Part shown: positions 8,572-59,410 of the stretch, in pieces
How the letters are laid out: each line of letters begins with the position of its first letter
Numbering within the stretch: position 1 is the first letter of the stretch
From: a virus
Taxonomy: Duplodnaviria > Caudoviricetes
Reading direction: 5' to 3' (one strand)
IMG/VR virus record: IMGVR_UViG_3300006802_000003
Span: 1-62,468 of that record
DNA length: 62,468 nucleotides
Made by a program: the position numbers and the translations under genes
The notes under the pieces: model-generated
Told to the model about the DNA's origin: nothing
Database searches by the model: none
The model's input: the letters and a program-made list of their open reading frames with translations, nothing else

Positions 8572-8581
8572 GGTGTGCAAA

Positions 8582-8935: not shown

Positions 8936-8947
8936 GCGGGGTTTTTT
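8924..8947 (+). terminator. Rho-independent terminator
   Basis: CCCCGC-cagtga-GCGGGG followed by TTTTTT. Confidence 0.7.
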
Positions 8948-8948
8948 A

Positions 8949-11546: not shown

Positions 11547-11607
11547 CGCCACCACTGGCTGGGCTTCGGCCCGGCTTCACAGCAACGCTCAATGAAAGGT
11601 CATTCCA

Positions 11608-11991: not shown

Positions 11992-12228
11992 TCCCCGACA
12001 TGGACCGAGAAGGTCGCTACCTGCAAATGGTAGAAGGCTCTGGCGGAGACGGTGACAACCCGATCCGCCAGGGTCGCCGGTCCAGTTCCCGCGAAGTCGC
12101 AGGCGCTGGTTACCGGACAGTGAGCTTGGCGGACGGAGCAGACGATTGCTGCATGACGGAGCTATCCGATCCGTTCTCCGACAAGGTGCTTTAAGCACTT
12201 CAACCCCCCGAAAATGAAAGGGAAAGCA

Positions 12229-31600: not shown

Positions 31601-34600
31601 ATTGCAACGGCTGGCCGACGACAAGGGCGTTGCCGTCGATGAGCTCGATGATGCGGACGAGGAAGCTGCATTCGATGCTGCACGGCAACAGGCCTACGAC
31701 CACGCATCGGAAATGGCGAGTCAGAGGGCCAACGGCACCTATACCGGCTTCGCTGGGGATCAAGACTTCGAGGTTACGCAAGACGCGGACACCGGCGAAA
31801 TGATGCTCTACATGACCATCGAAGGAGTTCACTATTCCGAAAGCCTTCGCCGGTTTGCCGACAGTGCTGAAATCAAGCAGGCCGTCAGGGAAATGTACTC
31901 CGAGCATTACCGCCGCAATGATGAGGATTACAAGGAGACACTGCATGCCGAGCACACGGAGCCCGGCGGCGAGGACTATACGGAACTGACACTCACGCTT
32001 CCCTACGACACCGTAAAGATTCCGCAATGGGCGGTCACCGTCGCCACTGCAACACCCGGCGTCAGGCGTGTAATTTCTCGCTATACGGATCGCCAGAACG
32101 CGGAATGGTGGATCAAGGAAAACAAGCCAGATGATGCCGAAGTTGAATTGCAGTGGGTAAACCGCACCCACCTGGTCGAAGATCACTGGCCGGATGAAGA
32201 GAATGTCATTGCCCACCTGCGCTTCAAGACCCGCTATATCGATGGCAAAAAGGTCATGGCCATTGAGGAGGTTCAGGGTGATCTAGGCCAAGAGCTACGC
32301 GACAAGAAAAAGGAATTGGCTCGCCTCGAAGGCAATCCGGCTGTCAACAAGGACTACCTGGCTGTCAACAAGCGCGACATCGACTTCCTTGAGAAATTCC
32401 CGTTTACCCCGTCCGAGGAATGGAGCGCGCTTGCGATCCGCCGGGCGCTGCGCTGGGCCGTGGACAATGGCTTCGATCGTGTCGCATGGACGCCGGGCGT
32501 TGTCCAGGCGAAGCGGTGGAAAGCGGATCACTACATTAACGCTTTCACCGTGCTCAACCGCAGTGAATATGCCGGCACACCCACCTTCCAGCTCACCCTT
32601 GAAGCCGACACCGGCCTGCACATCCTAGAATTTGATGATCGACAGACCATCATTTCTGCCAAGGGCTGGGTGATGTCCAAGAACCTTGGAAAAAACCTCA
32701 AGGAAGTGTTTGGTGAGCAGATGGCCGCCGACATTGTGGCCGCCATCAAGCCGAAGGATGGCACCGGCTTCAAGCAGTACAAAGAACCGATCCGCTGGGG
32801 CGGCGAAGGTCATCGCTTCTATTACGACACCCTGCTGCCAAAGCTGGTTGGCAAGATCGCCAAGCCGTTTGGAGCGAAAGTTGAAGCCTTGCAAATGGCC
32901 GACCTTCCAACGCCGGTTACTGATGCGGACGTGATCGCTTATCACGATATGAGCGTAGAGTTTTGGCGCTCCCTCACGACGCGACAGAAAATGGACTTGT
33001 CCAATGAGGCAATGAAAGGCAACGCTGGCGGCTACCAAAAATGGTGGTCGCTCGACGTAAACGACGCCATGCGCCAGGAAGTCAGCCAGGGCATTCCTCT
33101 TTGGCAGAAGAAATACCTAAAGGCCGCCAATCCAAACGAAGGGCGCCGCCTGACGACACGCGAGCAGGTGCGCATCAAGGAAATGGTGGACGAAGTGGCC
33201 CAGCGCGTCCTTGGTCGGTCATTGCGCGGCGTGAAGCTGTTCACGCGCCTCTATGACGAGGCCAATAGCGGCGCTTACGAGCACGGCACCGGCGTAATCA
33301 AGCTGGCGCTGGAAGGTTGGCTGAACCCGTTGGTGGGCATTCGCCACGAATCGATCCACGCTTTGCTGCGCACTGGCGTCATTTCCAAGCCTGAATTTGG
33401 CGTCCTTCGCCGCAACGCCGCCCGCTGGCGCCGGGACTACAGTATCGAGGAACGCTATCGCGACTTCTTTGAGGAGAATTACCCGCAAGACATGCCTGGC
33501 CGCAATGCTGCGATTGAGCTATCGATGGACGAGGAAGCCATTGCCGAAGCGTTTGCGCGTCATTGGATGCTGCAAGAAGAGCGCGGCATCATCGCTCGCA
33601 TCTTCAACAAGATGAAGAATTTCCTGGAAGCCTTGCGCAACGGGCTAACTGGGCTGGGCTACGAATCGGCGGAACAGATATTTAGCCGCATCGAGGAGGG
33701 CGAGGTTGGCGAGCGCACCCCACGCATTCCCCGCAGCGTTAGCGCGCCCACCACGCACCTGTACGCTTCGGGCAAGCCGGCGCCTGCACGGTCTATCGAA
33801 ATGGGCGATACGCCGAGCATTACGCTGGCGAAACCGCCCAGGCTATTCGCCAAAGACCCTCGCTTCAACTTTGAAGAGGGGGCCGATGGCAAGCCGCAGT
33901 CAATGATTCCCGGCTCCGAATCTATGACTAAGGCGCAGCTCGACATTATCAAATCGCGTGAAGCCAAGCGCCGTGCCGAGTTGACATATAAATCAACTCT
34001 CAAGCCAACGGTCGAGCAGGAAAAGATTGGCGGCCTGTTTGAGCAGGTGGAGAAAGACGACGATCCACAAGGCTCACTGTTCGTTCGCAACGTGTTGCAA
34101 GGCAGCCATGCCGTGTCGATTCCGCAGCGCACCAGGCGCATGCTCCAGCACCTTCGCCAAGGCGCCAGCGAATACACGGTTCTATGGCGTCGCCGCATGC
34201 AGGACAGGTTCATTGACTGGAAAAACCTGGAGCGCAAGATGGCGCTGCCAGAATATCTGTCCGTATATCGCGCGGAAGAGCTCTATTATGGCAAGGTCGG
34301 CGGGCGCATGGATGATATGCGCTGGACTCACTTCGAGCCCATCATGCGCGCGATTCGCGACAAGAAAATCAAGGTGGACGAGTTCAACAAGTTCCTGATG
34401 GCCATGCATGCCAAGGAGCGCAACGACTTCATCGCCACGCGCAACCCGAAAATGCCGGATGCCGGTTCTGGTATCGCTACCCAAGACGCACTGGACTACC
34501 TCAACATGCTCCGTCGTCATGGCAAACTGCGCGACATGATGGATGTGGGCCGCATGGTATGGGCCATGAACCAGGCTGCGCTTGATGAGCGACTGGCGGA

Positions 34601-38932: not shown

Positions 38933-39184
38933 TTACGCAGGCTCTAATCTGCTCTCAACGTCAGCAAAAAGCAAGATATAAGGCACCTGGATTGTTTTGG
39001 CGATCAGGTAAAGCGTAGGAGCACTTATGCGCCTTTTTCCCGCTTCCCATTGCTGGACCGTCTGCTGGGCAACGTCCAGTTTCTCCGACAAAGCGGCTTG
39101 AGACATTCCCACTTCCGTTCTCCAATATTGGATCGCCTTGCCGATCTGCTTGGCAACAACGGCCTCTTCCTCTTTGCGGTTCAT
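38933..39184 (-). CDS. XRE-family HTH regulator
   Basis: GMSQAALSEKLDVAQQTVQQWEAG. Confidence 0.88.
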   Translation of the reverse strand: MNRKEEEAVVAKQIGKAIQYWRTEVGMSQAALSEKLDVAQQTVQQWEAGKRRISAPTLYLIAKTIQVPYILLFADVESRLEPA

Positions 39185-39555
39185 ACCTTGGTTCCCCCAC
39201 CACCCCTGCGCACCGGCCCCTTCACAATTTCCGGCGGCACTTCCCCCTCTCCCTCATCGACTGAATCAGGAATCACGTCACCAACGATGTTTTGCACATC
39301 GCTGTACGCCGCTTGAATTGCCTCGTGCATTGCGTCGAGCCTTAATTCCAAGGTGTTTAATGCTTCGAGGTCCTTCTCATACCTCTGCCGCAGGTTTTCT
39401 TTCGCCGCGACAATTTCCCCTTTCATGGTGCTGGCCCAATCCGCACTCCCCTTTCTGCCATCATTCATGGCGTTCCATATTGCATCAAACGCATTGTAAA
39501 CAGCGTCCGCAGCCTGGCTCGCTGCGAGGATTACCGGGTTATTGAAATCAGTCAT
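39181..39555 (-). CDS. Hypothetical coiled-coil protein
   Basis: GGAGCAAG RBS. Confidence 0.75.
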   Translation of the reverse strand: MTDFNNPVILAASQAADAVYNAFDAIWNAMNDGRKGSADWASTMKGEIVAAKENLRQRYEKDLEALNTLELRLDAMHEAIQAAYSDVQNIVGDVIPDSVDEGEGEVPPEIVKGPVRRGGGGTKV

Positions 39556-39961
39556 TTGCTTGCTCCTTTAGGTTCGGCTTCTCGCCGTTCATCATGTCTG
39601 CGATCCGCACCAGGTACTCGGTGCGGCGCGGCATATAGATCGCCACCAGCTCCTGCAGCATCCACGGATCGTTGGTATGCTCATACAGGTGCGCCGCGAA
39701 GGCGATCACATCAACTCCCACATACTCCCACCATAGCCGTTCGTTGTGATTGTGCTGCGCGCCTGAATGCATGGTGTGCAGCTCTGGACACAAGGGAACG
39801 GCCCATCGGTCGTCTGGCTTCTCGCCCATGCCGGTTGGCCTTTTGCCCGCAGGCTCCCAGCCAAACCTCACATGGGCCGCGTGGACGCCTGGGCGGGCCG
39901 TCAGGACGCATGGAAGCGCCCTGATCCGGTTTAGGTGGCCTTCGTCACGAACACGCTTCAT
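39548..39961 (-). CDS. DUF968/Ref-like HNH-type nuclease
   Basis: HL..IRALPC..HAAHVR..DDRWAVPLC..H..QH. Confidence 0.7.
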   Translation of the reverse strand: MKRVRDEGHLNRIRALPCVLTARPGVHAAHVRFGWEPAGKRPTGMGEKPDDRWAVPLCPELHTMHSGAQHNHNERLWWEYVGVDVIAFAAHLYEHTNDPWMLQELVAIYMPRRTEYLVRIADMMNGEKPNLKEQAND

Positions 39962-41088
39962 CGCTGCTGCATTTCCTGCATGCGCTTCTTGGCGGAGTCC
40001 AGTAGCCCCTTCGGGTCTTTGTAATCGTCTGGCCATGCTTCCAGCGCCTCACAAATCTCCTGCAGCCTCTCCAGCGTGGCGTTTCGATCCATCAGGATGC
40101 GAACCACCTGCATATCCTTGTGGCTGGTTTCTGCCTGCTCTTCCTTGGGCTTTGGAACTTCCTTCTCTGCCACCTTCTCTTTTTCCGGCGGCGCTGGCGG
40201 CTCCTCTTTGGCGGTCAATTCCTTATCCGCCTTATCCCAACCAAGCTGCCACGCGCGAAACGCCTCGGAGTCTAGCTCGTCCGGACACGCGGAGATGTCC
40301 TCTCCATCCTGGCGCGCCGCATATCCGTCTCGAAACGGATCAGGCACATGGCCGCCGCCTTCTGGCCGGCGCGGCGGTGGTGCTCCAACCGTGTCATGGT
40401 CAATGACGACGCCCCCTGCCTCGACGATCTGCCCATGCATTTCTTCTGCCACCAGGTCGCCACCAAACTCTTCGGGGAAGGCTCGGCGCAAAGCGGCAGC
40501 CTCGGCGCATTTCTCAAGCTGGCCACGCGGGCGCTGTTGCCACATCGAGTTCGGTAAGAGGCTCTTCCCGCTCGCCTTGGCGTAGGTTTCACCCCAATAG
40601 ACTTTTGGCCCCGCGAAAAGAACCCTTTCACCGCCAACCATGCGATAGACACGAACCTGCGCCCATTCCGGATAGGTGAGCTCGATTTCGGCGTCCCTTT
40701 TGAGTTTCTTGCCGTTCTCATAATACGTCTCCTGCCCATTGAATTTCCTGGTGCGATCCGGCCCCCAAACCGTGTCGTCTATCCCGGCAAACTCGCCCGT
40801 TCGCATGGCGGTCGTGCGCAGCTCTCCAATGCCCGGCCAGATCGTCTCGACCATCCCCCGCTTCTCGCTACTCCAGACCGGAACGATGTGAACTGGTTTT
40901 TTCATGATGTCGAAGCGGCGGGCGGCACAATATTCCAGCGCCATTGCGATCGACTCGACTGATTGCGCGGACGGGAATATCGTGTCTAACAGCACTTTCC
41001 ATCGGCTCTGATCGAGCTCGTATTTCTTGGCCAACCTTGAATCCAGCGGTAGACGCGGACGGGCCAACACTATTTCATTTTCGCTCAT
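39958..41088 (-). CDS. bet: Single-strand annealing recombinase (Bet/RecT family)
   Basis: GIGELRTTAMRTG and MW..RPRGQLEKCAEAAALRRAFP. Confidence 0.85.
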   Translation of the reverse strand: MSENEIVLARPRLPLDSRLAKKYELDQSRWKVLLDTIFPSAQSVESIAMALEYCAARRFDIMKKPVHIVPVWSSEKRGMVETIWPGIGELRTTAMRTGEFAGIDDTVWGPDRTRKFNGQETYYENGKKLKRDAEIELTYPEWAQVRVYRMVGGERVLFAGPKVYWGETYAKASGKSLLPNSMWQQRPRGQLEKCAEAAALRRAFPEEFGGDLVAEEMHGQIVEAGGVVIDHDTVGAPPPRRPEGGGHVPDPFRDGYAARQDGEDISACPDELDSEAFRAWQLGWDKADKELTAKEEPPAPPEKEKVAEKEVPKPKEEQAETSHKDMQVVRILMDRNATLERLQEICEALEAWPDDYKDPKGLLDSAKKRMQEMQQR

Positions 41089-41091
41089 GGC

Positions 41092-42327
41092 TTACCTCAC
41101 AATGGTTTGGGTTTCATATTCAATGATGCAGCCGGGGATCGCATTGCGGTGGCGATGCTTCTCGTCTGCTTGAAGCGTCTGCATGTAGCGCCACGCGGCG
41201 GCTTCGATTGCATCCTCATTCAAATACGGCCACAGGGCTTCCACATCACACTTGGTTGGATCAATCAGGGTCAGCTTCCATCGCCGTTGCTGGGTGGCCA
41301 GCGCGCCTCGATCCGACCGGGTACGCGCCATGCCAGCCTCGTCTTTAGCTTGGGCAGCGGCCCGATCAGCATGCTTCTCGGCCCGTTCAGCCGCCGCCAG
41401 GTTCAACTTTTCATCCTTGGCGGCTTCTGCCTGCTCGGTCTTTCGCTGCTTTTCCTCTTCTTCCCACCTGCGGCGCTCTTCGAGGCGCTGCTTTTCTTCC
41501 TCGCGATGGCGCCGGCGGGCTTCCTCGGCTTCAATTTCTTGCTTGCGCATTTCCTCGATGCGCTTGCGGTTCTCTTCCTCGGCCTTGGCGCGGGCTTCGG
41601 CCTCTGCCTTCTCGCGCTCTGCCGCTACGGCCCTTTCTTCCTCGGCCCGTTCAGCGGCTTCGGCCTCGCGCTTCTTGCGCTCTTCCTCGGCCCTCTTGCG
41701 CTCTTCCGCCATCTTGCGTTCGAGCTCGATACGCTCCTGGCGCAAGCGTTCGGCCCTCTCGGCCTCTTCCTTGGCCTTGCGGGCAGCCTCTTCCCGTTCC
41801 GCTTGCGCTCGGGCGGCGGCCTCTTCTGCCTTCCTACGCTCTTCCTCGGCCCTCAAGCGAGCATCTTCCGCTTCCCTGGCCTTGCGCAGCCGTTCCTCGG
41901 CTTCCTCGCGCTCTTTCCTCTCCTTCTCCAGACGTGCTTGCCGTTCCTGTTCCTTCTTGGCCTCGGTGTACTTGGTCAATCCATCGCGCACCGCATCCAT
42001 TGCCTTGCTCAATCGCTCTTGCGGCTTTACGAACGTCGCGTTGATTTCGGCCACCTGGTCCTTGAGGGGCTTGGTGTAGTGGGCTTGAACCTCTTTCAGC
42101 TCCTTGACCAGCGCGCGGGCGATCTTGATGTTTTCCGCAACCAGCCCGGCGGTATCTTCATCATCGACGGGGATCGAGGTCGGTGTGCGCTCGATGGCGT
42201 CGAGGATTTTGGCGAACCGATCAAACAGTTCGGATTGCTCCTGCTTTATCATGTCGCCAAGCGATTCTGGCGGCCTGTTGTGGCCGATGTCGATATTTTC
42301 GACCGCGTTTGAGGTTTGTTCAGTCAT
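41092..42327 (-). CDS. Long E/R/K/A coiled-coil protein
   Basis: GGAGCAAG RBS; IGHNRPP N-terminus; IPGCIIE C-terminus. Confidence 0.75.
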   Translation of the reverse strand: MTEQTSNAVENIDIGHNRPPESLGDMIKQEQSELFDRFAKILDAIERTPTSIPVDDEDTAGLVAENIKIARALVKELKEVQAHYTKPLKDQVAEINATFVKPQERLSKAMDAVRDGLTKYTEAKKEQERQARLEKERKEREEAEERLRKAREAEDARLRAEEERRKAEEAAARAQAEREEAARKAKEEAERAERLRQERIELERKMAEERKRAEEERKKREAEAAERAEEERAVAAEREKAEAEARAKAEEENRKRIEEMRKQEIEAEEARRRHREEEKQRLEERRRWEEEEKQRKTEQAEAAKDEKLNLAAAERAEKHADRAAAQAKDEAGMARTRSDRGALATQQRRWKLTLIDPTKCDVEALWPYLNEDAIEAAAWRYMQTLQADEKHRHRNAIPGCIIEYETQTIVR

Positions 42328-42739
42328 TGTCTTGCTCCTTTGTGAACCTGTGCGGGGCGATCTTGCCCCATTGGATTGTGAAATCCGGATTGGCTTCCGG
42401 GCTGTCAGGCTCATGAATGGCCGCCCATTCGAGTTTCTGGTACAGGTACAGGTAGGCCGATTCCGTGATGGGATCGTGAGCGAGCCACGTCCACGCCGTC
42501 ATGGGGTCAAAGACCTTCCTGTAGATTTTGCACTTGAACACTTCATCATCGGTGAGCCGCCCGCTTTGATCGACGGGTTGATGGCACCAGATCACCGCTG
42601 GCACATAGGGGCCGCCCTTCACTAGCCTGGTTCTGTACCAGCCGCATTGCGGATCGCCGTCATGTATTTCTGGATGTCCGCCCAAAATCGCGGACGTGTG
42701 CCATTTGTATAGCTCGCGCCGGGGTGTTGGCCGTCTCAC
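42320..42739 (-). CDS. Hypothetical protein
   Basis: PQCGWYRTRLVKGGPYVPAVIW; overlaps both neighbours. Confidence 0.7.
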   Translation of the reverse strand: MRRPTPRRELYKWHTSAILGGHPEIHDGDPQCGWYRTRLVKGGPYVPAVIWCHQPVDQSGRLTDDEVFKCKIYRKVFDPMTAWTWLAHDPITESAYLYLYQKLEWAAIHEPDSPEANPDFTIQWGKIAPHRFTKEQDND

Positions 42740-45230: not shown

Positions 45231-45389
45231 AAGTTGCCGTCTTGACGAATAAAGCTGCATAGTTGTTACATATTGCCATGCGGACTCGAAATCCGCATCT
45301 GACCCAGCTCGACGGAGCTGTTAGCAATGCGGCAGGGGTGCGCGCCGAGACGTTCGGAAGGCGGCCCCGTAAGCAGGGGAGCAAGCGCG

Positions 45390-45827: not shown

Positions 45828-46570
45828 GTTTTCCATACATTCCATTTTACCCGGCGGACTATTTAAGCAAGGCGCATTGGTTGTCGCTGGGCGAGCACGG
45901 CGCGTATTTCAAGCTGATGCTGTTATGCTGGGAGACGCCCGGCTGCAAAATACCTGCCGAACGGGAGTGGATTCAACGTCGTTTGAGTGTGTCGGATCAG
46001 GAGTACGAGACAACCGTTCAGCCGGTCCTAAATGAGTTTTTCAAACGAGAAACCGAGTGGTTTTTTAATGCGCGACTTTTAGATGAATTTGAGAAGCTAA
46101 AAACACTGTATGAATCGCGCAAAAACAATGGGAAAAAGGGTGGTCGTCCAGCCAAAAAAACTAAGTCACTGAAAAACAACAAAAAGAGCAAAACCACTAG
46201 GTTAGTTTTAGGTTCCGAAAATCAAAACCTAAACGAAACCGAAACGGCCTATAACCAGAACCAGAACCAGAACCATAATAAACCCTCTGTATCTCCCTTA
46301 CCGCCTGCTGGTGAGAGTGTGGTAACTTGGAACTTCGAGTTTGAGGAGTGGTGGAAAGATCAATATCCACAGCGCCTCAATGGCAGGCAGGGATCGAAGG
46401 TCAAGGCGAGGGAGTATTACGTCAGGTTCAGAAAGGAAGGGGTCACCAAGAAACAGATATGGGACGCGACCGAGGAGTATTTTCAGGAGCTGGTGCAGAT
46501 CGACCGGCTCAACACCGAGTATGTCAAACACGCATCGAGCTGGTTGTTTAGCCAGCCGTGGGAAAAATAG
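45824..46570 (+). CDS. DUF1376/YdaU-family replication initiator
   Basis: YIPFYPADYL...LSLGEHGAY..L; NGKKGGRP; NQNQNQ linker. Confidence 0.8.
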   Translation: MSFPYIPFYPADYLSKAHWLSLGEHGAYFKLMLLCWETPGCKIPAEREWIQRRLSVSDQEYETTVQPVLNEFFKRETEWFFNARLLDEFEKLKTLYESRKNNGKKGGRPAKKTKSLKNNKKSKTTRLVLGSENQNLNETETAYNQNQNQNHNKPSVSPLPPAGESVVTWNFEFEEWWKDQYPQRLNGRQGSKVKAREYYVRFRKEGVTKKQIWDATEEYFQELVQIDRLNTEYVKHASSWLFSQPWEK

Positions 46571-46580
46571 GAGCAAGAGA

Positions 46581-47225: not shown

Positions 47226-47403
47226 GTGGTTCAACGGGAAGCCGCCGTGGCACCAGCGGATGGTGTTGATTGAGTCGATGATGAATCTCTGCCTGCAGGG
47301 GTATGCGAAGCCCACCACGCCGCTTATCGCACAGTTGGTTGAAGATGCGCAGAAAGCCGATGAAATGGCTAAGAGGTTGAGGAAGTCAGTGCGCAAGCGT
47401 TGA
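47209..47403 (+). CDS. Hypothetical protein
   Basis: GGAG SD; overlaps previous gene. Confidence 0.5.
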   Translation: MPMRAKWFNGKPPWHQRMVLIESMMNLCLQGYAKPTTPLIAQLVEDAQKADEMAKRLRKSVRKR

Positions 47404-47418
47404 CAAACGCAACACCAT
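47399..47418 (+). promoter_or_regulatory. Repeated promoter/operator, copy 1
   Basis: GTTGACAAACGCAACAC(CAT) containing a perfect -35 box. Confidence 0.75.
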
Positions 47419-47459
47419 AATTGAGTATTGATCCGTTCAATCACAAAGGAGCAAGTGAA

Positions 47460-48091: not shown

Positions 48092-48662
48092 TCCGCTGGC
48101 CCACCTTAATCAAGGCTACTCATATGCGGCTGACGATTCGCGGTTTCTTGACTATGCGGCCAGAAGCGAGCCTTGGCGGTTTGCGGTTGTTACCCACCTG
48201 GAGGCAATCGGGGAGAGGCTAAAGGTCAAGCCGATGCAGCTTCGCCCACACCATTCGCAGCGCCGCAAGTTCAAGGACGGCGGAGACATATGGACCGAGG
48301 ACGGGAGATTGATCGAGGTCAAGGGTATGTTTACGGCCCATTGGAACGACCGGCGCAACTTCCCCAAGTCGGAGGGCCACCAGCCGCAAGCCGGCCACAT
48401 GATAATCGATGATGTCTATAAGGTTCACGAGAAGCCAGTTTTCCCGTGGGCATATTTCCGCGTCAACGCCTGCAAATCGCTCGCGCTTGTTGCCTATGAC
48501 ACATCGCGCCCGCAGTGGATTCAAAAAGAGGTCTACACCAGAGTATCGAAGCGGTGGAACACGCTGTATCTGTGTCCGCTTAAATGGACCCACCTGGTCC
48601 CACTACATGGCGCGACATCGATGTGTCCGCGCTGCACACCAAGAGGAGCAAGACATGACTAA
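48084..48662 (+). CDS. PD-(D/E)XK nuclease-like protein
   Basis: DGGDI...LIEVKG. Confidence 0.6.
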   Translation: MPDPLAHLNQGYSYAADDSRFLDYAARSEPWRFAVVTHLEAIGERLKVKPMQLRPHHSQRRKFKDGGDIWTEDGRLIEVKGMFTAHWNDRRNFPKSEGHQPQAGHMIIDDVYKVHEKPVFPWAYFRVNACKSLALVAYDTSRPQWIQKEVYTRVSKRWNTLYLCPLKWTHLVPLHGATSMCPRCTPRGARHD

Positions 48663-48828: not shown

Positions 48829-48992
48829 TCGCGCTAGGTGTGACCATTTGTATTGTTGGGCAACTTGTCGGGATCGTCGGCGGGTTCATCGCCGGGCAGA
48901 GCGATGAGCACAACAATCTGGCCTTGGCGTTAATGGTTGGTGCGCTGGCAATGGCTGGAGCTGGTGTTGCGCTGGTGGAGATAGGGGGTTGA
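48825..48992 (+). CDS. Small two-TM membrane protein
   Basis: ATGA overlap; two hydrophobic helices. Confidence 0.6.
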   Translation: MIALGVTICIVGQLVGIVGGFIAGQSDEHNNLALALMVGALAMAGAGVALVEIGG

Positions 48993-49007
48993 CAAACGCA
49001 ACACCAT
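48988..49007 (+). promoter_or_regulatory. Repeated promoter/operator, copy 2
   Basis: 20-bp identity to copy 1. Confidence 0.75.
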
Positions 49008-49055
49008 GAACGCATGATCGCGCTTGTCACTAGCCAACTGAAAGGAGCAAGACAG

Positions 49056-49813: not shown

Positions 49814-49834
49814 CCAGCGCGAAAGGAGCAAGAC

Positions 49835-50316: not shown

Positions 50317-50357
50317 GTTGACAAACGCAACACATTGGAGGACGATGTGTTGCGTTT
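50317..50357 (+). promoter_or_regulatory. Repeated promoter, copy 3, with 13-bp perfect inverted repeat
   Basis: AAACGCAACACAT-N9-ATGTGTTGCGTTT overlapping the TTGACA promoter. Confidence 0.8.
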
Positions 50358-50381
50358 TCATATGTGAAAGGAGCAAGTCAC

Positions 50382-51135: not shown

Positions 51136-51332
51136 TGGTGTGGGTCGTCATATGTCGCGACAACGGTTATCCAACCGACGAGTGTCGCAAACCCACATGG
51201 GATGAGGCGCTGCACCTTGCCCGTAAATGGGCAGAGTGCCTAACATCAGAGGACTTCCCTAGCCTCAAAGCCGGGGAACAGGTTGAAATTGGAGACTGTG
51301 AAACCATCGAGATACAGGAGCAAGCACGATGA
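51135..51332 (+). CDS. Hypothetical protein
   Basis: TAATG coupling. Confidence 0.55.
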   Translation: MVWVVICRDNGYPTDECRKPTWDEALHLARKWAECLTSEDFPSLKAGEQVEIGDCETIEIQEQAR

Positions 51333-51897: not shown

Positions 51898-52048
51898 GCC
51901 TTGATGCACACACAGATGCGCACCTGCGACGCAATGGGCGGGTTATCCGATGCGCATATGTGACGGCCCGTCCGAGTATTGCGCAAATGCGCAGTGACGC
52001 ATACACTGCACACCCATTGTAGGGCTAGGCACAATGGACAACTGCAGG

Positions 52049-52600
52049 ATGGCGCGCACCAGAGGTCCAAAAGGCCTGATACCCTATCGCAAGAAGCGCA
52101 AGAGCGGCGCGCAAAAGCGCAAGGCGACCATCGATCCGACACCAGAATTGTTGAAGCGCAAGGCGGACGCGCTAGGGCGATCCCCATCGAGCGCAACACG
52201 CAATCAATCCATCGAGCCCCTAGATGTTATGCTGTTTCATGGCCTGATCGACCCCGGCGCCCACCGTGCCGGGGTTATGTTTGGCTACTTGCGGTTCGTC
52301 GTTTACGGCCGCCAGCGCGAGTGTGCGCACCTGGTCGCCGTCATTCACGGCCACCTATCGAGCGAGGACGCGCGGGATCGCCTGCTAACTGATGATGAGC
52401 TGATCGACAAGCGCGAGCGCGAGGAGGCCTCTTACAACAAGGCTTGTGCGCTGCTGAAATCGCTAGATCGAAGCTGGTTGGCCGCGGCCCAGTCGGTGCT
52501 GATCGATGGGCGCTGGCCCGACTATCTCACGCGAGTGAGGGCGATCCGTGCATTCAAGGCGCTGGCCCAGGTGTGGGGGATACGGGAGGGCGATCTATGA
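52049..52600 (+). CDS. Hypothetical protein (possible transcription regulator)
   Basis: Basic N-terminus; PLD...GLID...RAG motif. Confidence 0.6.
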   Translation: MARTRGPKGLIPYRKKRKSGAQKRKATIDPTPELLKRKADALGRSPSSATRNQSIEPLDVMLFHGLIDPGAHRAGVMFGYLRFVVYGRQRECAHLVAVIHGHLSSEDARDRLLTDDELIDKREREEASYNKACALLKSLDRSWLAAAQSVLIDGRWPDYLTRVRAIRAFKALAQVWGIREGDL

Positions 52601-52962
52601 GCATGTGCCGGGACTGCGCTCAAATGCGGCGGGAACTGGAATTGATCCGCCTAGAGCTGTATCTCCTGCGCAAGGCAATAAGCCGTGAGCGGCGCTTTGA
52701 TCCCAAGCTGTGCTTAACGCCGGCCCAGTCGCGGGTGCTATCGCTGATGTTGCGGCGTCCCGTAGTCGCAAACGATGCGCTGGCCGCCGTGACTTGCGGG
52801 CATATGCGGGAAGGATCTGTTGATAGTGTCAAAACGCAAATGTGCCGGTTGCGCCGTGTGCTCAAGCAACACGACATCCACATCAAGACCATGCGGGCCG
52901 TAGGGTATTACCTAGAGGGCGAGGACAAGAAGAAGCTCGCAAGGCTGGCGGTATGGTCATAA
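52597..52962 (+). CDS. OmpR/CtrA-type winged-helix protein without receiver domain
   Basis: LTPAQSRVL..L..VKTQMCRLRR.L..IKTMRAVGY. Confidence 0.75.
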   Translation: MSMCRDCAQMRRELELIRLELYLLRKAISRERRFDPKLCLTPAQSRVLSLMLRRPVVANDALAAVTCGHMREGSVDSVKTQMCRLRRVLKQHDIHIKTMRAVGYYLEGEDKKKLARLAVWS

Positions 52963-53192
52963 ATCAAAATAAACGGCCCACCACGCCGCCGAATGGCATC
53001 GCGATACACTACGATGAAATAACGTACAAATGGTCGTTCACTAGCTGCCCAGGTGGATTGTTGACCGACGAAAACGGCAAGCCGATCACCCTTGACGCAT
53101 CGGTTGGCCGACAATCCCGCTACGCATACGATGAGCTGCAGAAGGAAGGTGAACGCATTATGCGCTGCATGGCGATCTGCAGGCAATTATGA
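52953..53192 (+). CDS. Hypothetical protein
   Basis: Overlaps previous gene. Confidence 0.5.
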   Translation: MVINQNKRPTTPPNGIAIHYDEITYKWSFTSCPGGLLTDENGKPITLDASVGRQSRYAYDELQKEGERIMRCMAICRQL

Positions 53193-53207
53193 GAGGAGAG
53201 CAAGACG

Positions 53208-53936
53208 ATGAACACTGGCAAGATCACCCAAGCGGAAATGGTGGAGCTGTTTGGCGAGAAAGCCCCGATTGAGGCTATCACCCTGCTATTCGACGCAAAG
53301 CCTACCGAAACCGTGGGCGAGATACGCGCCAAGCTACGAGCCATAGCGGAGGCCAACAAGCCGCCAAAGCTGGAGGGCATTCCAAACGACACGGCCGCCA
53401 TGCGGATCATGGCAGAATACGTGGAGTTCGGCACCATCAAGGACTTGGAGACAGCCACCCAAATCATGCGCAACCTGTCGTGGATACGTGATCAGATGGA
53501 AATCAACACAGGAAGCGACGCAATGGACCGCCAACTGCAGGATATAGCGCAGATCGGCGCGTTCATGGCCTATTGCCAGGCTGTGGGAGCCGTCACGCCA
53601 GAGGTTCGCGGCTCACGCATAGGGCTGGAGATTTGTGTCGATGATACCGCGGGCGAAGAGACGAACTGTTGCGTGGGTGATTGTATCATGCTGGACGAGA
53701 CAAAAGGCACACCTCTTGATTTGTGGTTCTGCCTGAAAGTGATTGACCTTTGTTATGCGGAAGGCCGGGCGGTTCACAAGCATGCACCACGGCAGATGGA
53801 ACGCATTCGTGGCATGATCGATGACCTACTGACCGATGGGACTTGGCCAACCAGTGGCCACGGTTATCACAAGATCAGAAGGAAGTGGTTGCAGGCATGC
53901 AGAGCGGACCTGGACAAGCAGGAGGCTACGCAATGA
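53208..53936 (+). CDS. Hypothetical protein
   Basis: GAGGAGAGCAAG RBS; 242 aa. Confidence 0.7.
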   Translation: MNTGKITQAEMVELFGEKAPIEAITLLFDAKPTETVGEIRAKLRAIAEANKPPKLEGIPNDTAAMRIMAEYVEFGTIKDLETATQIMRNLSWIRDQMEINTGSDAMDRQLQDIAQIGAFMAYCQAVGAVTPEVRGSRIGLEICVDDTAGEETNCCVGDCIMLDETKGTPLDLWFCLKVIDLCYAEGRAVHKHAPRQMERIRGMIDDLLTDGTWPTSGHGYHKIRRKWLQACRADLDKQEATQ

Positions 53937-54103
53937 ATGCCCAGATACAGCTAATGCGGTCCCTGCTGGTGCTGATGCGCGACGTTCGCGGCCACATCGA
54001 TCCCACCAATCAGGCCTTTCTGCACATGAGCCACGCCATTGAGAGCGTTGAACGCGCTTGCATACAGGAGCAACAGGACCATGAAGGACAAGGCCAAGAA
54101 TGA
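53933..54103 (+). CDS. Small hypothetical protein
   Basis: GGAGG SD; ATGA overlap. Confidence 0.55.
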   Translation: MNAQIQLMRSLLVLMRDVRGHIDPTNQAFLHMSHAIESVERACIQEQQDHEGQGQE

Positions 54104-54270
54104 CTGAATGGCTGCTGATAATGATACTTGTCTGGCGTGGATCGGCCATCGAGCAAGTGCTATTCGCCAACCAGCAGGAATGCCTGGCGGCAAAGGCTCG
54201 GATCGAACAAGGGTTTGAGGACGGCGGGTTGACGATGATGTGCGTCCAGAGGACGTGGACCTATGACTAA
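54100..54270 (+). CDS. Small exported protein (56 aa, not in ORF track)
   Basis: MTEWLLIMILVW..F..QQECLAA..CV; overlaps both neighbours. Confidence 0.55.
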   Translation: MTEWLLIMILVWRGSAIEQVLFANQQECLAAKARIEQGFEDGGLTMMCVQRTWTYD

Positions 54271-54496
54271 GGGCAACCATACAAAGTGGATCGCTGTCAG
54301 TGCTGACGGGGAGATTTTGGCAGACAAGTGCCGCTGGGCAGACAATGGCGACCTAGTGTTCGAGATTAAGCGGGCAGGCACGCTCCACGCAGTTATGCCG
54401 CTCATCGAGGCATACACCTACCATCACATCGACAAGCACCAGTGCCACGTTAATCCGGGCGATACCGTGTCGCTGTCTTTCCGGCCCGAGAACTAG
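54263..54496 (+). CDS. Hypothetical protein
   Basis: Contiguous ORF. Confidence 0.55.
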   Translation: MTKGNHTKWIAVSADGEILADKCRWADNGDLVFEIKRAGTLHAVMPLIEAYTYHHIDKHQCHVNPGDTVSLSFRPEN

Positions 54497-54508
54497 GGAC
54501 TTAATCGA

Positions 54509-55045
54509 ATGCCGTATGACATACAGGAGGGGAAAGCGGTGATCTGCCCGCCTAAGTGCGCCACAACGATGATAATGCATGTATGGCGCTACCTGGGCTT
54601 TGAGGAGCGCATGCCAGACCACGTTCCGGCGTGGGTAATGCTTTCTGATCTGCAGAAGGCAGGCAATCCACCGATGCAATGGGCTATGAACGTCCGCCAT
54701 CCAGAGGAGAGACTGGCCAGCATGGTCAATAGCCAGCTCTACGGGCGCAACGGCAATCCAGACCACATCCTCGACCGCGTAATGCTTGGCGAGTGGATAT
54801 TGGTGAAGCCGCAAAGCTGGTTTTTGGAGAACACACCCGACGATCTGGACCTGACATTGTTCCCATTCGCACCTCACATGCCCATAGTTAAGTGGCTAGG
54901 CTACATCGATCCACGCGGCGACGTGCCGGTTGCGAACAGGAGCATGGGGGAGCTCACCATCGAGGAGCTGCGCGCATTGCCTGGATGGAAGGATGCACTG
55001 GCCATGTACGATAGCGACTGGGCATTATGGGAGAAGGTCAAGTGA
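54509..55045 (+). CDS. Sulfotransferase family 2-like protein
   Basis: PPKCATT (5'-PSB-like), VRHPEERLAS (3'-PB-like), KPQ and YDSDW. Confidence 0.6.
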   Translation: MPYDIQEGKAVICPPKCATTMIMHVWRYLGFEERMPDHVPAWVMLSDLQKAGNPPMQWAMNVRHPEERLASMVNSQLYGRNGNPDHILDRVMLGEWILVKPQSWFLENTPDDLDLTLFPFAPHMPIVKWLGYIDPRGDVPVANRSMGELTIEELRALPGWKDALAMYDSDWALWEKVK

Positions 55046-55062
55046 CGCTAGGAATGGGCAAA

Positions 55063-55275
55063 ATGCACGAAAAGCCTGGGGTTTTTAGTCCAGAAGAAAA
55101 CAACTGGTTAGGATCGCTGGCCAGCTACCTAGATGAATTTGACGAGCACACCGCTGCAGAACTGGTGCGGGTTGTTGATCGTATGATAACAATTCTGCAG
55201 CAAAACCACCGCGAGGACGTGGACATTGCGTATCATCAGGCGCTACAAGAGGTTAGAGAGGAGCAAGACACATGA
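55063..55275 (+). CDS. Hypothetical protein
   Basis: Acidic helical ORF; start uncertain. Confidence 0.55.
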   Translation: MHEKPGVFSPEENNWLGSLASYLDEFDEHTAAELVRVVDRMITILQQNHREDVDIAYHQALQEVREEQDT

Positions 55276-55541
55276 CATTGAGTTTAATGGATGAACTGGA
55301 TGCAGCCTTCCGCACGGTGCAACGCCTATTGGCCGACATCGAAACAGAGGATGGCAGCCCGGCACACGCCCAGGTTCTCATGGTTGTATCGCTTGAACTG
55401 GGCGATCCCCAAAAGAAGGTGATTATGGTCCCGAACGGGCTCACCAAGGGGCAGGCGCAGCTTGAATTGGAGCAGACCATCGAAATCCTCAAGGCAGGCA
55501 AAGAGAGGAGTGCTGTCAGTGGCGAATTACAGCCGGTTTAG
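55272..55541 (+). CDS. Hypothetical protein
   Basis: GGAGCAAG RBS. Confidence 0.7.
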   Translation: MTLSLMDELDAAFRTVQRLLADIETEDGSPAHAQVLMVVSLELGDPQKKVIMVPNGLTKGQAQLELEQTIEILKAGKERSAVSGELQPV

Positions 55542-55560
55542 ACGGTGGAGACGTGAGCCG

Positions 55561-55695
55561 ATGCTAAAGGATGCCGCGGCATTGTGGGCATTGAGCAAGT
55601 CAACGCTTGAGATTGCGCAGATGCTGCGTGTGTCGGAGCATTTCATTTGGAACAACATGGAAGAGATAAGGGACCTGGCCCATGACAATCGTTGA
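55561..55695 (+). CDS. Small HTH-like protein
   Basis: STLEIAQMLRVSE; start uncertain. Confidence 0.45.
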   Translation: MLKDAAALWALSKSTLEIAQMLRVSEHFIWNNMEEIRDLAHDNR

Positions 55696-55942
55696 CAATC
55701 CCGATCCTGTCTTATTGCAGGCGATCACGCTCAAGCATGCGTTGAGGCTCTACGCCAAGACCGGGCTCCTGCCGAATAGGCAGACCAGCGCAACCAAACT
55801 TTTGCAGATCGCCACTAGAGTGACCGGCAAAAGCTACAAGCGCGGGCAACACGCCAAGGCAGCCGAGGACATTGAAAAGATACTCAAGGCCGGCACCGAT
55901 CCAATCAATCACAGCCAGCAATTGAGCGAAGAACACCACTAG
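55682..55942 (+). CDS. Hypothetical protein
   Basis: TGKSYKRGQ motif; overlaps previous gene. Confidence 0.6.
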   Translation: MTIVDNPDPVLLQAITLKHALRLYAKTGLLPNRQTSATKLLQIATRVTGKSYKRGQHAKAAEDIEKILKAGTDPINHSQQLSEEHH

Positions 55943-55956
55943 AGGAGGCCCGCAGT

Positions 55957-56172
55957 ATGGCAACCGTCACCAAATCGATCCTATGGAGCAAGCGGCTGGA
56001 GAAGTATGTCGCTAGAGTTTCGGTCCTGGCCGAGAGCTGGGCCGTGGATCGCGACGTTTACAGCTATGCCAACGACAAGGAATCGCTGCAGAAGTGGGCA
56101 AAGCGCCAGCAGGAGGCTTGGGCCATCGATCCGCTTGCGCAAATCGTGTTTAACCTTGAGAAGGCAAAGTGA
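55957..56172 (+). CDS. Hypothetical protein
   Basis: GAGGAGG SD. Confidence 0.6.
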   Translation: MATVTKSILWSKRLEKYVARVSVLAESWAVDRDVYSYANDKESLQKWAKRQQEAWAIDPLAQIVFNLEKAK

Positions 56173-56196
56173 TGGCAGCAATACGAGGAGAAGGCG

Positions 56197-56490
56197 ATGA
56201 GTGAAAATGTTAGAATTTGGGAAAGGAAGGTCGGAAAACATAGGACGGAAGACGACGAAAACAAATGGCAAGCCGACATTTTTTGGGGAAACGAAGATCA
56301 TCATGGCATAGGGAAAACACCGTCTGAAGCATTGGTTAGAGCAGCAACGCACTGGGCTTCCCGAAGCCGCTCAATCTCTGCTGCCTGCGCGGCTCTTCAG
56401 GAAGTGGCCGACTTGAGTACGGGGTATGATGACCTCGTTGACGCCCTTAAAATAGCCCGCGCAGCCCTAGAAGAAAAAAGAGTCAGATGA
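56197..56490 (+). CDS. Hypothetical protein
   Basis: GAGGAG SD. Confidence 0.6.
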   Translation: MSENVRIWERKVGKHRTEDDENKWQADIFWGNEDHHGIGKTPSEALVRAATHWASRSRSISAACAALQEVADLSTGYDDLVDALKIARAALEEKRVR

Positions 56491-56493
56491 GTG

Positions 56494-56685
56494 ATGAGTA
56501 GTTGGCAATCAGACATGACACGAGCGCCTATTGGAGAGCGTGTGCTGGTGAAAAACCGTGAAGATGGCACGCCGTACTATGCGGTCAAAGGAAACGACGG
56601 GGAATGGCGGAATCCGGTAGTTCATTCCTGCGTGTATGATCCGCAGTTGTGGAGCAAAGAAAGAATAATTGTTTCAATGACTTAA
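56494..56685 (+). CDS. DUF551-like small protein
   Basis: WQ..M..AP.GERVLV...W pattern. Confidence 0.5.
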   Translation: MSSWQSDMTRAPIGERVLVKNREDGTPYYAVKGNDGEWRNPVVHSCVYDPQLWSKERIIVSMT

Positions 56686-56782
56686 TGCTTCTAATCACCC
56701 AGTTTTCACCATAGAAAAAGCATTTAGCAAAGAACGTCCTGGCAGGGTTTGAGTAACATCCAGCTCTATGATACAAGATTGA

Positions 56783-56888
56783 TGTCGGAAGTATGCACCC
56801 CTCGATCCCCTGCAACGGATCACGGTCCCACAGGCATATTTCTGACACTTGCTCCAGAGGGCGGTTGTACTGATGTGCAGCCGCCCTC
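56783..56888 (+). ncRNA. Candidate sRNA 1: two 14-bp hairpins flanking single-stranded CTTGCTCC
   Basis: Stems 56783-96/56834-47 and 56857-70/56875-88; every non-Watson-Crick pair is G-U on the + strand; TTGAGT-N17-TACAAG promoter-like sequence upstream. Confidence 0.65.
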
Positions 56889-56916
56889 ATTGCGTTGTGC
56901 TGCAAATTCGTATATA

Positions 56917-57097
56917 GGGACCACTTAGGCAGTTTCGACTTTTGCCGGTGCGCGTCCTCGCCGTCGCCTGCAGTTCTCATCCGAATCGAGAACCGGCCTG
57001 TCAACTGCCCGTAGCCTGGACCGACTTGCTCCCCTAAGCGGCCCATCTAAATAGCAACCCCTGGTCACGACGGAAAGCCCGCGGCCAGGGGTTTGCT
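56917..57097 (+). ncRNA. Candidate sRNA 2 / structured late leader with second CTTGCTCC
   Basis: Nested stems GGCAGTT/AACTGCC, GCCGGT/ACCGGC and GTTCTC/GAGAAC; closing stem 56917-29/57033-44; then hairpin CCCCTGGTC/GGCCAGGGG. Confidence 0.55.
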
Positions 57098-57114
57098 TTA
57101 CGGGAGACACTTCA

Positions 57115-57675
57115 ATGGCCAAGATCACCCGCGAGCACTTCACCAAAAAGAATTGCGATCCGGAGGAGCTGTATAAGCTCTATCTAAACCTGCCCCACAA
57201 GAAGCGCAGCCACGCCGAAACCGCGCGCCAGTGGAATGCCAAGGTCGATCTGGACAAGGACAAAATCAGCGCCGCCTATGTCAGTACCCAAAGCAAAAAG
57301 CACGGCTGGCAGAGCAGGCTCTACCACGACCTGGGCGAACAAGGCGTTGCTGGATTTGCAGGCGTTCAGAAATTGCGCATCAAGACGATGTGGGAGGACA
57401 TCGAGGCTGATATGCAGCACCTGTCCAGCGAGTTTATGAAATCGATCGAGGGCAAAATGCTTGCCAAGGTCAAGTACGAGCTCGACAGCATCAAGCTGGA
57501 CAGCACGGAAAAGCTGGACGCTATGCTCGACATCATTATGAAGCTGACCGAAGTGGAGCACCGCATTCGAGGCCTTAACATCGACAAGAGCGACAACAAA
57601 CCACCAGAAGCGCCGAGCAAGCCTATTCCAGACTGGGATAAGATCATAAACGCCGCGCCTGTAAAGCCGAATTGA
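57115..57675 (+). CDS. Terminase small subunit (putative)
   Basis: KRSHAETA..S.KHGW..R HTH-like region; directly precedes terL. Confidence 0.65.
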   Translation: MAKITREHFTKKNCDPEELYKLYLNLPHKKRSHAETARQWNAKVDLDKDKISAAYVSTQSKKHGWQSRLYHDLGEQGVAGFAGVQKLRIKTMWEDIEADMQHLSSEFMKSIEGKMLAKVKYELDSIKLDSTEKLDAMLDIIMKLTEVEHRIRGLNIDKSDNKPPEAPSKPIPDWDKIINAAPVKPN

Positions 57676-57679
57676 ACCG

Positions 57680-59410
57680 ATGGCCAGGCCTGTTTACGGA
57701 ACCCGGTACATTTCCGAGAGAAACCAACGGCTGCGAGAGCAGATCGAAAGCGGCCAGGTATTCAACAAGGATTTTCAGGAGATTCAGGGCTTCTACAACG
57801 AGTTCAACGAGAAAGCCGATCCCAATGACAAGGCGCTGTTGGCCTGCAATGATCGCTACTACCTGCTGGTGGAATTACTGCACCGCCGCGACGCGCTGCA
57901 GCCGTGGGTGTATGATCGGTGCCGAGAGGTCGAGGAGAATCCGGACGGCTACCTCGATCTGTGGGCGCGCTACCACTACAAAACATCAATCATCACATCC
58001 GCCGGCATCATTCAGGAGATATGCCGCGATCCGGAAGTGACCATCGCGATTTTCAGTGGCACGTTGAAGATCGCCAGCAAGTTTTTCACGCAGATACAGG
58101 AAGAACTCGAATCCAACCTTGAACTGCAGCAGGCCTTTGCGGATGTACTCTATATCAGCCCGCGCACCGAAGCCAAGCGGTGGTCACGCTCCGCCGGTCT
58201 TGTGGTCAAGCGTAAATCCAACCCCAAAGAGGCGACGCTGGAGTGTTTTGGCTTGGTCGAAGGCATGCCGACTGGATCGCACTTCAAGCTGCTGGTGTAC
58301 GATGATCTGGTGACGGTCGAGCTTGTCTCCAATAAGGACATGGTGGAGAAGGTCACGGAACGCTGGGAGCTATCCGACAACCTGGGCGTAGGGGAAAAGA
58401 CGCGCAAGTGGCATGTTGGAACGCGCTACTCATATCAGGACACCTACGGCACCTTACTGGAGCGCAAGATACTCAAGTCCCGCCTTTACCCGGCCACGGA
58501 CACTGGATTGCTAGACGGCACCCCGGTTCTGATGACACCTGCGGCATGGGAAAAGGTGAAGATGACGCAACCCGGCACCGTTGGTGCGCAAATGCTGCAG
58601 AACCCGGTTGCTGGACACGAATCGACGTTCCGCATGGAATGGCTCAAGAACTTTGAAATTCTCCCGGCAACCCTCAATATCTACATCATGGGCGACCCGT
58701 CGAAGGGTAGGACCAGGGAGAGCGACCACACCGCCATTGCCGTCGTTGCGATGGATTCGGCGGAAAATATGTACTTGGTCGATGGCTTCTCGCATCGCAT
58801 GAACCTTGACGAACGATGGATGCGACTCAAAGAGCTCAAGAGGCGTTGGGATCATGTGCCGGGCGTCCAGTCCGTCCGCGTCGGCTGGGAACAGTATGGC
58901 CTCACCACGGACATCGAGCACTTCCAGAAGATGATGCGGATCGAAAAGGATTCGTGGCCAATCGAAGAACTGAACTGGGTGCGAGAAGGCAGGCAATCGA
59001 AAGAGGATCGTGTGCAGCGCCTGCAGCCAGACTTTTTGCAATCTAGGTTCTATCTCCCGCAAGTGGTTTGGCACGAGGTCAACGCTGGTGGCGGTCATGC
59101 CGTTTGGACCGTCAATGTCGGAACCAACAAGATCGAATACCGCCCGTTGCTTAACGAAACAAAGCCCCAGCGCATGATGAAGGCAGCCGGGCAGGCTTGG
59201 CGCATCCAAGAGCCGATCACGCGCAAGGACGAAGATGGCAAGCTCTACGACCTTACGCGCCGGTTCATAGAACAGTATCTAGCCTTTCCAAAATCCAGGC
59301 TTCGCGACCTGATCGACGCCACGAGCCGCGTGTATGACATGCAGCCCGTTCCGCCTTCGGTATGGGAGGCTGCGATAGAAGATGAGCCGGTCTACTATCC
59401 CGACGCTTGA
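57680..59410 (+). CDS. terL: Terminase large subunit
   Basis: ARYHYKT Walker A variant, YDDL Walker B, GTRY, nuclease DPS..SDHT and DLID. Confidence 0.9.
   Translation: MARPVYGTRYISERNQRLREQIESGQVFNKDFQEIQGFYNEFNEKADPNDKALLACNDRYYLLVELLHRRDALQPWVYDRCREVEENPDGYLDLWARYHYKTSIITSAGIIQEICRDPEVTIAIFSGTLKIASKFFTQIQEELESNLELQQAFADVLYISPRTEAKRWSRSAGLVVKRKSNPKEATLECFGLVEGMPTGSHFKLLVYDDLVTVELVSNKDMVEKVTERWELSDNLGVGEKTRKWHVGTRYSYQDTYGTLLERKILKSRLYPATDTGLLDGTPVLMTPAAWEKVKMTQPGTVGAQMLQNPVAGHESTFRMEWLKNFEILPATLNIYIMGDPSKGRTRESDHTAIAVVAMDSAENMYLVDGFSHRMNLDERWMRLKELKRRWDHVPGVQSVRVGWEQYGLTTDIEHFQKMMRIEKDSWPIEELNWVREGRQSKEDRVQRLQPDFLQSRFYLPQVVWHEVNAGGGHAVWTVNVGTNKIEYRPLLNETKPQRMMKAAGQAWRIQEPITRKDEDGKLYDLTRRFIEQYLAFPKSRLRDLIDATSRVYDMQPVPPSVWEAAIEDEPVYYPDA

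Follow-up and report, generated by a model that had tools for sequence, protein, structure and literature searches.

In phage lambda the late operon is preceded by a leader made up of the promoter pR', the 6S RNA and the terminator tR', and transcription passes the terminator by Q antitermination. Among host small RNAs (sRNAs), RsaE/RoxS, RsaA and CcsR are hairpin-rich molecules whose C/U-rich seeds, held in loops or linkers, pair with the Shine-Dalgarno sequences of many mRNAs. Here we describe a gap of 429 nt, free of open reading frames (ORFs), that lies directly upstream of the terminase genes terS and terL of an uncultured freshwater phage; the window, i.e. the whole stretch of DNA analysed, corresponds to one complete virus record in IMG/VR (62,468 bp, 56.4% G+C). 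We read this gap as a structured boundary between early and late genes, that is a 3' untranslated region (UTR) and/or a late leader, closed by a terminator that has to be read through for terS to be expressed, and we give this reading a probability of about one half. The gap also carries, twice, the exact complement CTTGCTCC of an 8-nt ribosome-binding site (RBS) that the phage uses in its early genes, which brings two further groups of described systems into the comparison. PMC12197685 describes the antisense RNAs c4 of P1/P7 and sar of P22 as exposing short stretches complementary to a ribosome-binding region, with translation blocked as the result, c4 displaying two such stretches in loops, and counts lambda 6S, its function unexplored, among the Hfq-dependent sRNAs of phages. 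In T4, according to PMC3014915, the early mRNA class is shut off by the endoribonuclease RegB and the repressor RegA via a common extended Shine-Dalgarno motif, and strong RegB sites share GGAGRAYARAA, so that the sequence 3' of GGAG matters.

The gap is non-coding. Every ORF that overlaps it has a negative codon score under a model trained on the long genes of this phage, including a minus-strand ORF of 153 aa (−0.108 per codon) that reads both RBS complements in one frame, belongs to no Pfam or PHROG family and, among 5.8 billion proteins, matches only itself. No tRNA was found in the gap, and Rfam returned no match at gathering score over the whole window, the C4 family included, with only four matches in 56400–57300 at E values of 1.4–7. 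A blastn search of the gap against phage records gave no match. Contigs assembled from four DNA runs supplied 11 pieces over the gap, all identical to the window and with no variants, parts of the gap being uncovered.

Folding of the whole gap, compared with shuffled sequences, gave a z score of −3.77 on the plus strand and −0.79 on the minus strand. Within it, positions 56783–56900, which hold hairpins H1 and H2, fold at −55.8 kcal/mol on the plus strand (z −5.75; 0 of 200 shuffles) as against −43.7 kcal/mol on the minus strand (z −1.81; 11 of 200), and H2 by itself reaches −27.6 kcal/mol (z −8.25) on the plus and −18.0 kcal/mol (z −4.56) on the minus strand. This asymmetry of H1–H2 arises because two G.U pairs in each hairpin turn into C.A mismatches on the minus strand. 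The strand preference is real for the first module only, as H3, the terminator-like hairpin downstream of it and the stretch 56923–57101 as a whole fold equally well on both strands. An earlier note on this DNA took the non-canonical pairs of the long stems to be G-U on the plus strand, which is confirmed for H1–H2. Two other stretches of the window considered as structured non-coding gaps, 8572–9279 and 11547–12213, were rejected as both hold plus-strand ORFs.

The one-sided fold also bears on a reading at the level of DNA, in which the gap would be a pac, cos or other protein-binding region that serves packaging or replication. Both CTTGCTCC copies belong to a 9-mer, ACTTGCTCC, repeated at a distance of 177 bp, which under this reading would be the binding repeat, its likeness to an RBS being chance. 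In lambda-like phages terminase-binding repeats do lie just before the small terminase gene, and here the gap is directly upstream of terS and contains a direct 9-mer repeat with GCGG 5 nt on from both copies. However, that H1–H2 fold far better on one strand through G.U pairs points to RNA over double-stranded DNA, a repeated 8-mer is expected about once by chance within 429 nt, so that the repeat itself is uninformative, and the 123-bp terminal repeat of the record sits away from the gap and is probably an assembly overlap. We therefore give a packaging or replication site only a small chance.

At its downstream end the gap is closed by a terminator-like hairpin (57056–57093, −23.6 kcal/mol) followed by the U-tract TTTGCTTT. 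There is no room for a promoter between this hairpin and the RBS of terS, and terS and the late genes behind it would consequently be expressed only by read-through, which would imply regulated antitermination, as at lambda pR'-tR'. On the upstream side, a crude scan of the plus strand for GC stems followed by U-runs found few sites, those at 8942, 51890 and 57092 among them, with only a weak one (54821) between 51890 and 57092; since no strong hairpin with a U-run intervenes, the operon 52034–56685 probably continues into the gap and has its end in it. The plus-strand transcript of the gap would then serve as a structured 3' UTR for the operon that finishes at 56685, as a late-operon leader, or in both capacities, and termination would yield a stable small RNA of ~180–320 nt. 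Such a boundary has no need of the CTTGCTCC copies, which may be coincidental or reflect some secondary property of this RNA as a leader.

Judged from one relative, the part of the gap that appears to be conserved is the terminator-like hairpin with its U-tract. This relative, L099, a contig of 9 kb from an Anderseniella metagenome-assembled genome, encodes the TerL homologue P0006, 65% identical to TerL of the window, and its terS homologue is preceded by a control region of 250 nt that is unrelated in sequence to the gap and not notably structured (z −0.53). At L099 positions 6326–6370 there is a hairpin in the same AACC...GGGGTTTTTGCTTT frame (AACC...GGGGTTT(TT)GCTTT), with a different stem and equally far upstream of the terS ATG. 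Approximately 185 nt upstream of terS, on the same strand, L099 also carries a −35-like box, TTGACAAACG, the same 10-mer that heads three promoter-like repeats of the window.

Like the lambda late leader, the gap is a short structured stretch with an intrinsic terminator directly before the late operon, one that would demand read-through and whose terminated product would be a small RNA. The differences are that neither a promoter nor a Q-like gene was found here (55900–57700; ORFs scanned), that there is no sequence or Rfam relation to the lambda leader, and that terS is the first late gene, with the terminator abutting its RBS.

A number of observations weigh against a structured early/late boundary. 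A scan of 55900–57700 for promoters of sigma-70 type called none, and the terminator-scan tool did not call the hairpin 57056–57093, probably because its loop limit was exceeded, so that the call is that of our own fold and scan. Family scans of early/middle ORFs in 43.4–56.7 kb, 18 of them compared with Pfam and 10 with PHROGs, covered a part of the early ORFs and brought up no antiterminator, sigma factor or late activator; this counts weakly, these phages being poorly annotated and most ORFs being without any family. The structure score alone is not exceptional, as z scores of −3 to −4 are also found in coding parts of the genome and 200-nt windows near z −6 were met elsewhere in a partial scan of 15.3 kb. 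A hairpin with a T-run before the terminase was considered as a family trait and rejected, being present in only 9 of 57 loci at TerL ~50% identity (crude finder, 250–1500 nt upstream of terL). Finally, this reading does not explain why the RBS 8-mer of the phage has two exact complements only 177 nt apart (nominal P 2e-5 to 8e-5).

By eye, −10-like sequences can be read just before H1 (TATGAT, 56767) and just before H3 (TATATA, 56911).

Table 1. Features of the gap upstream of the terminase genes and RBS cassettes of the early/middle region (positions in the window).
Feature	Positions	Strand	Description
ORF-free gap, 429 nt	56686–57114	+	between last early/middle ORF (56491–56685) and terS
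Hairpin H1	56784–56846	+	13-bp outer stem, two G.U pairs, inner 5-bp hairpin
CTTGCTCC copy 1	56848–56855	+	in 10-nt H1/H2 linker (A-CTTGCTCC-A)
Hairpin H2	56857–56888	+	perfect 14-bp stem, UGAU loop, two U.G pairs
Branched structure H3	56926–57010	+	z −2.23 on +, −2.08 on −; no strand preference
CTTGCTCC copy 2	57025–57032	+	small hairpin 57019–57043: CUUG paired, CUCCCC loop
Terminator-like hairpin, then TTTGCTTT	57056–57101	+	11-bp outer stem; ends 2 nt before terS Shine-Dalgarno
terS (small terminase by position)	57115–57675	+	codon score 0.36; Shine-Dalgarno GGGAG 57103–57107
terL (large terminase)	57680–59410	+	phrog_38, E 3.1e-36
RBS cassette GGAGCAAG	39559–39566	−	minus-strand gene 39181–39555
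RBS cassette GGAGCAAG	42331–42338	−	minus-strand gene before RecT-like gene (weak PHROG exonuclease match, E 0.0043)
RBS cassette GGAGCAAG	45378–45385	+	4 nt ahead of ATG 45390
RBS cassette GGAGCAAG	46570–46577	+	3 nt ahead of ATG 46581
RBS cassette GGAGCAAG	47448–47455	+	4 nt ahead of ATG 47460; first gene after promoter-like repeat 47400–47418
RBS cassette GGAGCAAG	48645–48652	+	2 nt ahead of ATG 48655 (HTH_3/HTH_31 protein)
RBS cassette GGAGCAAG	49044–49051	+	4 nt ahead of ATG 49056; downstream of promoter-like repeat 48989–49007
RBS cassette GGAGCAAG	49825–49832	+	2 nt ahead of ATG 49835
RBS cassette GGAGCAAG	50370–50377	+	4 nt ahead of ATG 50382; downstream of promoter-like repeat 50318–50336
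RBS cassette GGAGCAAG	51317–51324	+	4 nt ahead of ATG 51329
RBS cassette GGAGCAAG	55260–55267	+	4 nt ahead of ATG 55272

The standardised early RBS of this phage, GGAGCAAG, is real. It occurs 17 times on the two strands, whereas 100 dinucleotide shuffles average 2.91 copies (maximum 11; none reaches 17), and, in agreement with the earlier note, 11 of these copies (nine on the plus and two on the minus strand) lie 2–4 nt ahead of an ORF-opening ATG in early/middle genes, mostly behind AAA. Four more are inside genes (7701, 24799, 31135 and 55985), and the last two are those of the gap, which are antisense and read CTTGCTCC on the plus strand. Variants of GGAGCAAG that differ by one letter serve at least four further early genes (49361, 50929, 53197 and 54067). 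Used as an RBS, the exact word is limited to the early/middle region of 39–55 kb, the late genes having other Shine-Dalgarno sequences. The promoter-like repeat TTGACAAACGCAACAC(C/A) is present in three copies where 0.01 would be expected, each ~50 nt ahead of a GGAGCAAG cassette. Downstream of the third copy stands AAACGCAACACAT as its inverted complement, an arrangement that looks like a promoter with an operator.

Both exact complements are in the gap where the earlier note had placed them, and that note had built on them a trans-acting sRNA. One or two RNAs from the gap with CUUGCUCC seeds would pair with the GGAGCAAG cassette of the 11 early/middle genes, cover the Shine-Dalgarno sequence and stop translation, either as two molecules (~56783–56900 and 56923–57101) or as one ending at 57101, made as a separate transcript, as a terminated late leader or as a processed 3' UTR of the early operon. 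The physical prerequisites are there, namely a real RBS motif, exact complements, a plus-strand fold, an open first copy and a terminator-like end, and the restriction of the exact cassette to early/middle RBSs would make such an RNA specific for that class. None of the discriminating tests supported it. The observation itself stands, but the regulator is unproven and, for the reasons that follow, we consider it unlikely.

A first-order Markov model predicts 0.006–0.013 copies of CTTGCTCC in the gap, and the nominal P given above is that of at least two copies on the plus strand of this gap, which is the only long ORF-free gap of the region; elsewhere on the plus strand, antisense copies are found only as the RBSs of the two minus-strand genes. 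Roughly corrected for both strands and for the non-coding DNA as a whole, the value rises to ~1e-3. This is suggestive, yet coincidences of that size per genome must arise many times when very many windows are scanned. A sense variant with one changed letter, GGAGCAAA, lies inside the last early ORF at 56651–56658, 190 nt ahead of copy 1, and could pair over 7 bp with either CTTGCTCC copy in the same transcript.

The first copy is well exposed in the linker of two strong hairpins specific for the plus strand. The earlier note had described this linker correctly, as it had the 14 bp of H2, while the outer stem of H1 is shorter than the 14 bp it was credited with. Opening copy 1 costs 1.0–1.9 kcal/mol, below the 10th percentile of 8-nt windows in 56780–57101 (2.3 kcal/mol; median 5.0 kcal/mol), with a mean unpaired probability of 0.41–0.70 that varies with the transcript model. 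Copy 2, which had been taken to be unpaired, is half paired: in the fold of 56923–57160 its CUUG half pairs with UAAG (P 0.78–0.95), leaving only CUCCCC in the loop, just ahead of the terminator-like hairpin that would be the candidate 3' end. Its opening energy is 2.4–4.1 kcal/mol, and its accessibility is ordinary, with 23–58% of windows at least as open. The energetics as such permit pairing, as the 8-bp duplex of seed and RBS is worth −12.2 kcal/mol and opening of the targets costs 0–4.4 kcal/mol; RNAduplex run on the whole 322-nt RNA gave inflated energies with huge loops and was not used. Pairing in cis of copy 2 with the Shine-Dalgarno sequence of terS was considered and rejected (P ~0.04 in 56923–57160), as was the idea that the second module is a duplicate of the first, since by eye there is no likeness past the 9-mer and GCGG.

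The extent of the complementarity argues against an RNA tuned to these targets. In 17 of the 22 seed–RBS combinations the pairing is exactly 8 bp, and neither seed runs on into the conserved AAA before GGAG. Pairings of 10–11 bp with some targets, to which the earlier note had pointed, do exist, but three of 22 is about what chance would give (~2.75). The four in-gene copies of GGAGCAAG pair over 8–12 bp, longer than the RBS copies do; the late-gene sites 24796–24807, 31133–31143 and 7699–7708, which share CTGGAGCAAG, pair with copy 1 over 12, 11 and 10 bp, respectively, beyond any pairing of copy 1 with an RBS. The number of k-mers that the gap has in common with the remaining genome is about what chance predicts (observed versus expected, 12-mers 3 versus 3.2, 11-mers 15 versus 12.8 and 10-mers 61 versus 51). 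Also counting against an sRNA are the negative promoter and Rfam scans described above, the lack of a clear U-tract after H2, and the result in relatives given below.

Among the known RNAs, c4 and sar are the nearest precedents for RBS blocking, as the candidate here would likewise be a phage RNA with short exposed RBS complements. They differ in having one target each (ant/icd, in immunity control), as against a cassette common to 11 genes. RsaE/RoxS, RsaA and CcsR are host RNAs with generic CCCC/UCCC seeds, whereas the 8-mer here is an exact match to a phage-specific cassette, and there is no homology. The T4 regulators RegA and RegB are proteins, not RNA, and the motif of this phage is GGAG-CAAG. 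No relatives of RegA or RegB were seen among the phage proteins scanned against Pfam and PHROGs; a protein reader of the cassette, RegB-like or RegA-like, would equally explain the conserved CAAG, with the gap playing no role.

Alternatively, the two minus-strand GGAGCAAG copies might be leftover RBS cassettes of lost minus-strand genes, the structure then being of other origin. The same cassette does serve two minus-strand genes (42331 and 39559), in L099 a real-looking minus-strand gene (195 aa) directly precedes the control region of terS, and in a more distant relative, G005, an orphan AGGAGCAAaccATA resembles a cassette with a decayed start codon. Against this, searches of the gap with tblastn and tblastx against the ORFs of L099 revealed no protein similarity, and the 153-aa minus-strand ORF has neither a homologue nor a positive codon score. 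The earlier note had stated that on the minus strand neither copy precedes a plausible gene, and so it proved, one copy having no start codon in reach and the other opening an ORF of five codons; nor was a start-codon remnant seen at cassette spacing after either copy. We regard relics of this kind as very improbable.

For comparison with relatives we used L099 and genomes at TerL ~50%; the homologues P0002–P0005 are 65–72% identical in TerL, or 64–72% when P0007 is included. In metagenomes TerL has 3258 homologues at E <= 1e-10, only a handful of them above 60% identity, and among cultured phages it has a single match at 29% identity. TerL as a single query against IMG/VR found no close relative, and none of the 80 loci retrieved with a TerL alignment exceeded 56% identity. 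In these 80 loci TerS was not detectable, and blastn and nhmmer comparisons of the gap with them gave nothing below E 0.7. A pattern search for the terminator with the terS start had no matches; one for the seed with the H2 stem returned 18 loci, amounting to ~7 distinct sequences and near chance, none of them like the module and several being RBSs of opposite-strand genes.

Other members of the phage family also seem to have standardised start cassettes for their early genes, each genome with a sequence of its own: AAAGGAGCAAG here, AGGACTGA in L099, AGGAGCAA in G005, and a hairpin plus ACAGGAGGGATCC in G002. The word GGAGCAAG itself is not enriched in five complete relatives (TerL ~50%), with 0–5 copies compared with 2–5 for a control word. 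L099 uses its own cassette four times, and the complement is absent from its whole locus. In G002 (TerL ~50%), GGAGGGAT stands at gene starts in 13 of 16 copies, and an intergenic cassette consisting of a GGAGCgccagtGCTCC hairpin, then ACAGGAGGGATCC, then ATG occurs ~10 times (loci L122–L125, ~46.5–50.9 kb, minus strand). In the 2.5 kb ahead of terL, none of the three relatives with a cassette of their own (L099, G002 and G005) has an antisense copy of it, even when one mismatch is allowed. This partly goes against an sRNA whose seed co-varies with the RBS motif, as the earlier note had expected of relatives, and is a weak test, the relatives being distant (TerL 50–65%) and without a homologous gap. 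In G005 (TerL ~50%) the gene that opens the packaging module is preceded at ~70 nt by a hairpin with a T-run (locus L024, position 2101), which speaks for the boundary reading. The packaging module of G005 starts differently from that of the window: about 70 nt behind the hairpin and T-run, and two genes before terL, lies an ORF (L134, 2366–2827) in which we read an HNH-like cysteine/histidine pattern.

Nearly all genes of the phage are on the plus strand. The late block includes the major head protein (phrog_1357), a polyvalent protein of 5,719 aa and an endolysin; two recombination genes are on the minus strand at 39958–42414, one for the RecT-like protein and one with the weak exonuclease match listed in Table 1; and small early/middle genes, whose products include a DUF1376 protein and an HTH_3 protein, occupy ~42.7–56.7 kb and are followed by the gap, terS and terL, in that order. 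The terS product matched no PHROG or Pfam family and is 33% identical over 81 aa to the ORF preceding TerL in L099. The 5,719-aa ORF (19647–36806) combines InPase, ResIII/DEAD helicase, methyltransferase and LPD38 domains in one large polyvalent protein. The neighbouring late genes 1296–3269 and 4039–8571 have in common a tandem repeat of 66 nt (22 aa), with ~35 copies in 1980–2850 and 5500–8240. Several TerL homologues (among P0004, P0007, P0014, P0064 and P0104) measure 830–930 aa and have LAGLIDADG/Hom_end domains (PF14528, PF05204) and hence an intein, which TerL of the window is without.

If the gap is a structured early/late boundary, it would be an ordinary one, and its recognition would help to annotate a large uncultured family of phages of ~60–65 kb. 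The cassettes imply that something reads or maintains them, which could be a RegB-like protein, an RNA, or recombination at gene boundaries. Should an anti-RBS RNA be true after all, one phage RNA would silence the translation of a whole temporal class, as an RNA counterpart of T4 RegA/RegB, and this would be the first phage regulon in which a single RNA controls a temporal class via a shared RBS.

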